Sequence record: PP925839.1
Reading direction: 5' to 3' (one strand)
Source of the DNA: Escherichia phage PinkRuby
DNA: 64,000 bases
Position 1 is the stretch's first letter; each line of letters starts with the position of its first letter. The notes under the pieces were generated by a model. It was not told the DNA's origin, made no database searches, and worked only from the letters and a program-made list of their open reading frames with translations. Positions 35,352 through 35,490 of the stretch are shown piece by piece. Made by a program: the position numbers and the translations under genes.

Positions 35352-35490
35352 AGTTTTGTGAAAAAATTTTTAAAAAGTTTTAGGGAATTCTAGGGAGGGA
35401 AGGGGCAGTTAAAGGATAGGATAATATATTATAAAGGGTAGAAACTAAATGATGCCTAGAGAGATCCAGAAAGGCCTAGATGCCAAAAAG

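Follow-up and report, generated by a model that had tools for sequence, protein, structure and literature searches.

The gap upstream of e.8

The interval described here (35378-35490) lies in a 64,000-nucleotide stretch of DNA from a T4-like phage of the genus Tequatrovirus; this whole stretch is hereafter called the window. Positions 34900-36200 of the window were 100% identical to Shigella phage KRT47 (MN781580.1). All genes around the interval are on the minus strand, and the interval itself is part of a 240-nt gap between a 187-aa ORF (36081-35518, minus) and a homologue of e.8 (35277-35014, minus). Read along the minus strand, the gap consists of a terminator hairpin, a pyrimidine-rich spacer of ~108 nt, an A/T-tract element, a core promoter, and a 44-nt leader. 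The first-pass annotation had placed the interval between an early promoter and a terminator, and we were able to locate both, on the minus strand, at 35350-35322 and 35509-35491, respectively. The features of the gap are as follows.

35491-35509, minus strand: intrinsic terminator hairpin CCCTATC-TAAAT-GATAGGG (terminator scan), closing the cassette of the 187-aa ORF
35490-35383, minus strand: pyrimidine-rich spacer, ~108 nt, from the terminator to the UP element
35462-35490, minus strand: degenerate, apparently terminator-derived repeat (TRF; match to a terminator arm of Dhakavirus MX01)
35421-35449, minus strand: weak promoter-like remnant, TTTAGT (35449-35444), 17 nt, TATTAT (35426-35421), read from the sequence
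35383-35405, plus strand: G-run tract with the canonical G4 motif GGGAATTCTAGGGAGGGAAGGGG, corresponding to a C-run tract on the transcribed minus strand
35351-35382, minus strand: A/T-tract upstream (UP-type) element of the e.8 early promoter (early-promoter repeat families D1, D3, and D6)
35322-35350, minus strand: core early promoter of e.8, with -35 TTTACA, a 17-nt spacer, and -10 TACTAT (hexamers invariant in relatives)
35278-35321, minus strand: 5' UTR of e.8 with Shine-Dalgarno GGAG (alignment of relatives, pi 0.015)
35014-35277, minus strand: e.8 homologue (87 aa, phrog_2678), served by this promoter

The hairpin is carried as an annotated terminator in phages JB75 and D5505, and CTTTTT (35490-35485, minus) follows directly on its 3' side. 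It shares the intergenic space with the e.8 promoter but stands 108 nt from the UP element. The promoter aligned with the other early promoters of the window, with which it forms extended repeat families (D1, D2, D3, and D6). Our early-promoter matrix was built from 11 early promoters of the window, scoring 21-32 bits; by full-length score, the e.8 promoter (62.8 bits) was the second-best among the window's early promoters. T4 e.8 is assigned to the early class by RNA as well as by protein. We also observed that the UP element varies in length among relatives, with a 10-nt deletion (35372-35381; about one helical turn, between TAAAA repeats) in 8 of 26 and insertions of 3-4 nt in others, so that the A-tract region of this early promoter is length-polymorphic.

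The orthologue of the spacer in T4 (70677-70854, 89% identity over 178 nt) is found between the 3' end of rnaC and e.8. The T4 rnaC-e.8 intergenic region (NC_000866 70624-70907) is thus the direct orthologue of the gap, and the terminator T-tract junction, the spacer, and the e.8 early promoter are all alike. T4 differs in its upstream neighbour, which is the stable RNA rnaC with another hairpin, whereas in KRT47 two ORF cassettes of phrog_2280 sit between rnaC and the spacer. The T4 spacer differs further in having three C-runs only and is therefore without the canonical G4 motif. The T4 record carries no annotated function for the rnaC-e.8 region, and in the literature on this gap we found neither mapped transcript ends nor a described function. 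Overall, the spacer matched 533 phage records, nearly all of them Tequatrovirus. It is present as a single copy per genome, and only the promoter part recurs elsewhere; on these grounds we rejected the possibility that the spacer is a repeated element.

A cassette junction with changing upstream neighbours

To compare the gap among relatives, we aligned 26 distinct spacer versions together with those of RB69 and SF (both Mosigvirus). Three different neighbours adjoin the spacer on its upstream side: rnaC in T4, SHFML-26, and BCPShso_001; a 157-aa ORF in 11 sequences; and the 187-aa ORF in KRT47, 11 other aligned relatives, and RB69. The two ORFs both belong to phrog_2280, and in KRT47 rnaC (36805-36943) and rnaD (36950-37066) are located further upstream of the spacer. 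Two types of terminator hairpin occur among the relatives (the one described above or a T4-type hairpin), and the homology always starts at GGGC-TTTTTGG. A recombination scar had been among the explanations offered by the first-pass annotation, and in substance this idea stands: the spacer behaves as a constant flank to which three upstream modules are joined at GGGC-TTTTTGG, and its 5' part consists of what appear to be degenerate terminator-like copies (see below). The alignment indicates a site at which cassettes are swapped, with the spacer as its constant right flank and three alternative neighbours upstream.

This pattern of upstream neighbours, as far as the sequences tell, agrees with published accounts of modular shuffling by PeSLs. 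In the T4/PST pair, indels have been reported to lie near degraded -35/-10 boxes and stem-loops, and GGGC-associated deletions have been reported in T4 (PMC4122927, PMC2839356). PeSL cassettes (Arbiol 2010, PMC2839356; Comeau 2014, PMC4122927) likewise combine a terminator stem-loop, an AT-rich region, and an early promoter of the form TTTACW-N17-TAYWAT. Here, the promoter is TTTACA-17-TACTAT (35350-35322) with A/T tracts extending to 35382, and the GGGC-TTTTTGG junction is a boundary of indels or replacements between close relatives, which is where PeSLs are located. The likeness extends to the hyperplastic region, to the position at a boundary of insertions, deletions, and replacements, and to the degraded boxes and stem-loops nearby, all of which we draw here from sequence comparison. 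Unlike in a PeSL, the stem-loop and the promoter stand 108 nt apart here, with unique single-copy sequence between them; in Dhakavirus, the corresponding junction has stem-loop and promoter side by side.

Several further observations concern the block upstream of the junction. The 157-aa ORF (36680-36207, minus) is bracketed by two 40-nt terminator direct repeats (36163-36202 and 36718-36757; 95% identical, family D7), and a late-promoter motif TATAAATA occurs at 36724 (minus), just downstream of the hairpin of the upstream repeat copy. Judged by this arrangement, the 157-aa unit resembles a cassette that can be inserted together with a late promoter and a terminator of its own. The phrog_2280 proteins of 187 aa (35518-36081, minus) and 157 aa (36207-36680, minus), members of a family of unknown function, have similar starts, MKTYAEFLTEAA and MKSYAQFLNEAV. 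The DNA at the 5' end of the 187-aa gene belongs to repeat family D5, which is also found at two more gene starts ~5 kb away (30287-30334 and 30621-30668). The two phrog_2280 genes and the D5 starts make up a small family of paralogues dispersed over the early region.

The homologues of rnaC (36805-36943, minus; 98.6% identical to T4) and rnaD (36950-37066, minus; 93%) are unannotated in the KRT47 record, and two mechanical ORFs, of 53 aa and 49 aa, overlap with these RNAs. In the equivalent stretch of JB75, two CDS annotated next to the 157-aa ORF probably cover rnaC and rnaD. A 116-aa ORF (phrog_3355; 37066-37416, minus) lies between rnaD and tRNA-Arg, where in T4 rnaD instead adjoins tRNA-Arg, followed by segB. 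The tRNA set (37435-38455, minus) comprises 11 genes, including His, Asn, Tyr, and Met, vs. 8 in T4. The 116-aa ORF and the differing tRNA set are a further sign of a hyperplastic block.

The terminator hairpin itself also varies. In IMGVR_UViG_2974739009 its loop is inverted (CCCTATC-ATTTA-GATAGGG vs. CCCTATC-TAAAT-GATAGGG in KRT47), a flip of the kind made by template switching, and the flipped version contains ATCATTTAG, which is also present in the spacer. The spacer (ATCATTTAG) is complementary over 9 nt to the terminator loop, which we set aside as probably due to chance; this complementarity is missing in relatives with the other hairpin type.

Divergence, putative relics, and composition of the spacer

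Divergence of the spacer among relatives is near-neutral. Its diversity (pi 0.060; CI 0.039-0.084) is nominally about half that at four-fold sites of e.8 (0.110; CI 0.048-0.185) and also below that at third positions (0.093), and with the small sample of aligned relatives and the wide CIs neither difference was significant. The neighbouring elements, with 0.038 for the core promoter and 0.015 for the leader, are both clearly more conserved. Within the spacer, the C-run tract reached 0.088, and the promoter-like remnant at 35421-35449 was the least variable part (0.018). Two invariant blocks of 13-14 columns each were found in the spacer but were not significant, because ~65% of columns are invariant anyway.

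Natural variants lack part or all of the spacer. Specifically, the Mosigvirus PhAPEC2 has lost 64 nt from the middle of the spacer and keeps the C-run tract, and in Dhakavirus MX01 and four IMG/VR contigs the terminator stands directly against the same promoter, with an e.8 protein that is 80-87% identical. Conservation in related phages, proposed earlier as a check on the interval, therefore came out mixed: the spacer occurs throughout Tequatrovirus and in some Mosigvirus, but it diverges at about the synonymous rate and is absent from Dhakavirus. We note separately that the Mosigviruses phiC120, PhAPEC2, RB69, and SF carry a Tequatrovirus-type spacer and e.8 promoter (92-95% identity) and that the Dhakaviruses are without them. 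From this distribution, the region upstream of e.8 seems to have been exchanged between genera.

The 5' third of the spacer contains a degenerate repeat. TRF reported a 17-nt period with 2.1 copies (score 45, 35462-35495); the tandem copies are AGGGCTTTTTGGCATCT, which starts inside the hairpin, and then AGGCCTTTCTGGATCT. In most relatives, the second 17-nt copy could still form a small hairpin (AGGCC-TTTCCG-GGCCT). In addition, TCTAGGCCTTTCCG agreed at 13 of 14 positions with the 5' arm of the terminator adjoining the e.8 promoter in Dhakavirus MX01 (p about 0.001 by shuffling), a similarity that is 14 nt long in all. The 5' third of the spacer thereby looks like terminator-derived debris. 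We also considered, and rejected, that the C-run tract descends from terminator arms of the T4 or KRT47 type, as the alignments were no better than shuffles (p 0.9 and 0.4, respectively).

The degenerate 17-nt repeat also accounts for the TAGG/CTAG units that the first-pass annotation had reported. These units are real and in part locally enriched: TAGGGA occurs at 35381, 35391, and 35505 (7 copies in 64 kb) and CCTAGA at 35455 and 35475 (8 copies in 64 kb). The CTAG cluster, by contrast, is unexceptional; its 3 copies in 108 nt gave a per-window Poisson p of 9e-4, yet other windows of the 64 kb also reach 3, and we dismissed it as a special signal. It has been suggested that such units could form an array for protein binding, in which TAGGGA and CCTAGR together with an AT palindrome would be putative sites for phage or host proteins. 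A stretch of 130 nt does contain 3 of the window's 7 TAGGGA copies and 2 of its 8 CCTAGA copies, and the 12-bp perfect palindrome ATAATATATTAT (35432-35421) is invariant in relatives. However, there is no CTAG/TAGG unit that all relatives keep, comparable CTAG clusters occur in other parts of the window, the degenerate tandem copy suffices to explain the repeats, and PhAPEC2 has lost the middle of the spacer, palindrome included. We therefore give a protein-binding array only a very slim chance.

The palindrome is held within TTTAGT-N17-TATTAT, and the sequence in mid-spacer looks like a -35/-10 pair that has decayed. Alternatively, this pair could be a second, upstream promoter (35449-35421, minus) that would yield a longer e.8 transcript with a C-rich leader. 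Its hexamers differ from the T4/PST early consensus TTTACW-N17-TAYWAT (PMC4122927) at one position of 12, none of the 12 hexamer columns varies in 25 relatives, and CCTATCC just downstream is similar to CTATCAA, the start region of true early promoters (uncorrected p 0.02). The pair nonetheless scored -1.5 bits, compared with 21-32 bits for true early promoters, and ranked 632 of 128,000 positions, so that it does not qualify as an active early-type promoter. It has no A/T-rich UP element, no TG extension, no MotA box, and no late TATAAATA, and it is deleted in PhAPEC2. A functional second promoter is, in our view, very unlikely.

The composition of the spacer is its most extreme property. As claimed previously, the plus strand is strongly purine-skewed: 71% of 35383-35490 is purine, the maximum of all 108-nt windows. 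The maximum G-C skew of the window also falls here, at 35332-35439 (33 G vs. 4 C, plus strand), and 78-nt windows taken inside the spacer reach the 99.9th percentile of the window for the C/G ratio of the minus-strand RNA. The minus-strand RNA of 35490-35383 would accordingly contain 33 C vs. 11 G.

Four G-runs forming a G-quadruplex-type motif had been pointed out at 35383-35405 (plus), and the tract GGGaattctaGGGaGGGaaGGGG is indeed there. When both strands of the 64 kb were scanned for canonical quadruplex motifs (four runs, G3+ N1-7), it was the sole occurrence on either strand, compared with a mean of 0.02 expected per window from 300 dinucleotide-preserving shuffles. Its G4Hunter peak of 1.68 is the maximum of the window (runner-up 1.20) and falls in the range of about 1.5 or more taken to indicate a high G4 propensity. 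Structure prediction, the check suggested for this motif, agreed for the KRT47 sequence, for which quadruplex-aware MFE folding gave a three-tetrad G4 (-12.7 vs. -1.7 kcal/mol); no G4 was predicted for the T4 version of the tract.

Across the relatives, the motif did not prove to be a conserved feature. It is missing in 11 of 28, T4 and RB69 included. Among the 26 aligned relatives, 17 keep the four-run motif, and T4 and eight others lack it; RB69 and SF have two G-runs left only. The losses are due to point changes that differ between relatives, and none of the four runs is intact throughout, so the conservation of four runs that would be expected of a functional G4 was not found among the aligned relatives, RB69, and SF. 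What is retained in all relatives is the pyrimidine richness of the transcribed strand (C 28-36 vs. G 10-13), and G4Hunter remained at or above 1.36 in 25 of 26. Most likely, on this comparison, the plus-strand G4 motif is a strain-variable by-product of a pyrimidine-rich tail and not a conserved element.

These results bear on the possibility that the tract acts as non-B DNA, i.e., that a plus-strand G-quadruplex or a polypurine-polypyrimidine H-DNA, located ~70-90 bp ahead of the e.8 start site, influences the early promoter or serves as a recombination hotspot at the cassette junction. Such a role would be in keeping with the rarity, the G4Hunter maximum, and the predicted three-tetrad fold of the motif, with the position of the tract exactly at the recombination junction, and with the G-richness broadly kept in Tequatrovirus. 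It is at odds with the absence of the four-run motif from T4, RB69, SF, and 8 other relatives, with the breakage of every run somewhere, with the negative prediction for T4, and with the diversity of the G tract (pi 0.088), which is about the synonymous rate. Furthermore, the crossover points are at the terminator and not at the G tract, and the G-rich strand would be the template for the only expected transcription, which would not favour an R-loop-coupled G4. We consider functional non-B DNA improbable.

T4 DNA carries modified cytosines, a setting unlike that of the promoter G4s of herpesviruses. A more specific proposal is that selection keeps the tract in Tequatrovirus and that a putative G4 (bulged in T4), formed by its G-rich strand in glucosyl-hydroxymethylcytosine DNA immediately ahead of the early promoter, tunes the promoter or makes a fragile site that turns the junction into an exchange hotspot; we regard this as quite improbable. 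The G4s of herpesvirus immediate-early promoters (PMC6651000) likewise have a canonical four-run motif upstream of an early viral promoter, but those motifs are conserved, whereas 11 of 28 relatives, the type phage among them, have lost the phage motif.

Coding potential, transcription, and the nature of the spacer

The interval had been described as having no ORF. This needs qualification, since GenBank annotates a 26-aa protein, gp133, on the plus strand of KRT47 (35449-35529), but the description survives in that gp133 is not gene-like. In its favour as a real small protein gene are the annotation itself and the ORF, which is open from ATGATG in 25 of 26 relatives. Its variant codon types, however, included 10 nonsynonymous vs. 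2 synonymous, which indicates no purifying selection, and both its length (19-26 aa) and its C-terminus vary with the type of terminator that it runs into. The Shine-Dalgarno is poor, and there is no plus-strand late promoter upstream. Based on these sequence features, the gp133 annotation is probably spurious, and a real gene here has next to no chance.

A structured RNA element had also been proposed, and it found no support on either strand. A search of 35300-35520 against Rfam returned no family at E<=1, and the folding z-scores relative to shuffles were +0.83 (minus), +0.67 (plus), and, for a third, -0.46; the positive values mean that the sequence folds less well than its shuffles. A canonical late promoter TATAAATA that could yield a G-rich RNA was absent from the plus strand between 1 and 37298. 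Within the spacer, neither a MotA box nor TATAAATA was found on either strand, and a middle or late promoter in the spacer was rejected on this basis.

The RNA that would be read through the terminator is C-rich, G-poor, unstructured, and untranslated for ~150 nt. It is possible that this sequence contains a rut-like site, and we treat a Rho-dependent back-up terminator as the main rival to the reading given below. RNA leaking past the weak 7-bp hairpin would load Rho, polymerase would be stopped in the U-rich promoter region, and e.8 would be solely under its early promoter. Rut sites are unstructured, often C-rich, and freely accessible in intergenic regions, and Rho-dependent sites have been reported upstream of delayed-early genes of T4 (PMC2988021). 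The gap presents what is sought in such a site, namely ~70-100 nt of C-rich/G-poor RNA with little structure and no translation: the minus-strand RNA of 35439-35332 has 33 C vs. 4 G, the top skew of the window; the spacer RNA is less structured than its shuffles (z +0.83); and the gap has no minus-strand ORF and would thus be untranslated. Moreover, the C excess is kept in all relatives and the C-run tract outlives the deletion in PhAPEC2. The upstream RNAs of T4, RNAC and RNAD, are late and e.8 is early, as if the two sides behaved as separate units, although these late and early classes may stem from RNA stability and not from insulation.

The resemblance to rut sites that back up intrinsic terminators lies in the ~100 nt of C-rich, G-poor, unstructured, and untranslated intergenic RNA, and the site is a candidate only. 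It differs from established rut sites in that Rho dependence here is putative and in that the sequence is conserved in two genera and not beyond. Rho action is proposed from composition, the Dhakaviruses manage with a terminator adjoining the same promoter, and the divergence is near the synonymous rate. We hold the Rho explanation to be unlikely, albeit one to be taken seriously.

Our preferred reading, to which we assign a probability of roughly 55%, is that the interval is a passive non-coding spacer made of decayed terminator-promoter cassette remnants at a cassette-exchange junction of the PeSL kind. The terminator (35509-35491, minus) closes the upstream cassette, and the strong T4-type early promoter with its UP element (35382-35322) opens the e.8 unit. 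The ~108 nt between them specify no protein and no structured RNA, are dispensable in related phages, and drift at about the synonymous rate. Relatives have rnaC, the 157-aa ORF, or the 187-aa ORF, each with its own terminator, against the same spacer, and older cassettes of the PeSL kind would have left debris in it, namely degenerate terminator copies, a decayed -35/-10 pair, and a pyrimidine-rich tail. At most, the spacer would provide homology for recombination and distance between terminator and promoter. We infer that the spacer originated as decayed cassette remnants and that it has no selected function. The region has been part of the T4 sequence for decades without an assigned function, and the known kind of element that it fits is a PeSL-type junction with degraded elements.

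Some observations speak against a passive spacer. The interval has the top purine fraction, the top G-C skew, and the sole G4 motif of the 64 kb, and drift in a genome of 35% GC should erode such an extreme composition, so that a constraint on pyrimidine richness is possible. In addition, G4Hunter is kept high, diversity is nominally half that of four-fold sites, and the C-run tract survives the PhAPEC2 deletion.

If the Rho explanation were true, the gap would offer a concrete, mappable Rho site in T4-type phages, where the positions and role of Rho-dependent sites in early transcription of T4 have been under discussion for a long time with few mapped examples (PMC2988021). A selected G4, if true, would make this the earliest report of a functional G4 from a T-even phage. 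If the ordinary reading of a passive spacer is right, the gap would illustrate the build-up of recombination debris at terminator-promoter junctions of T-even phages. It would also caution that striking G4 statistics in an AT-rich phage may be an accident of one strain, and it would flag KRT47 gp133 as a probably spurious annotated gene.
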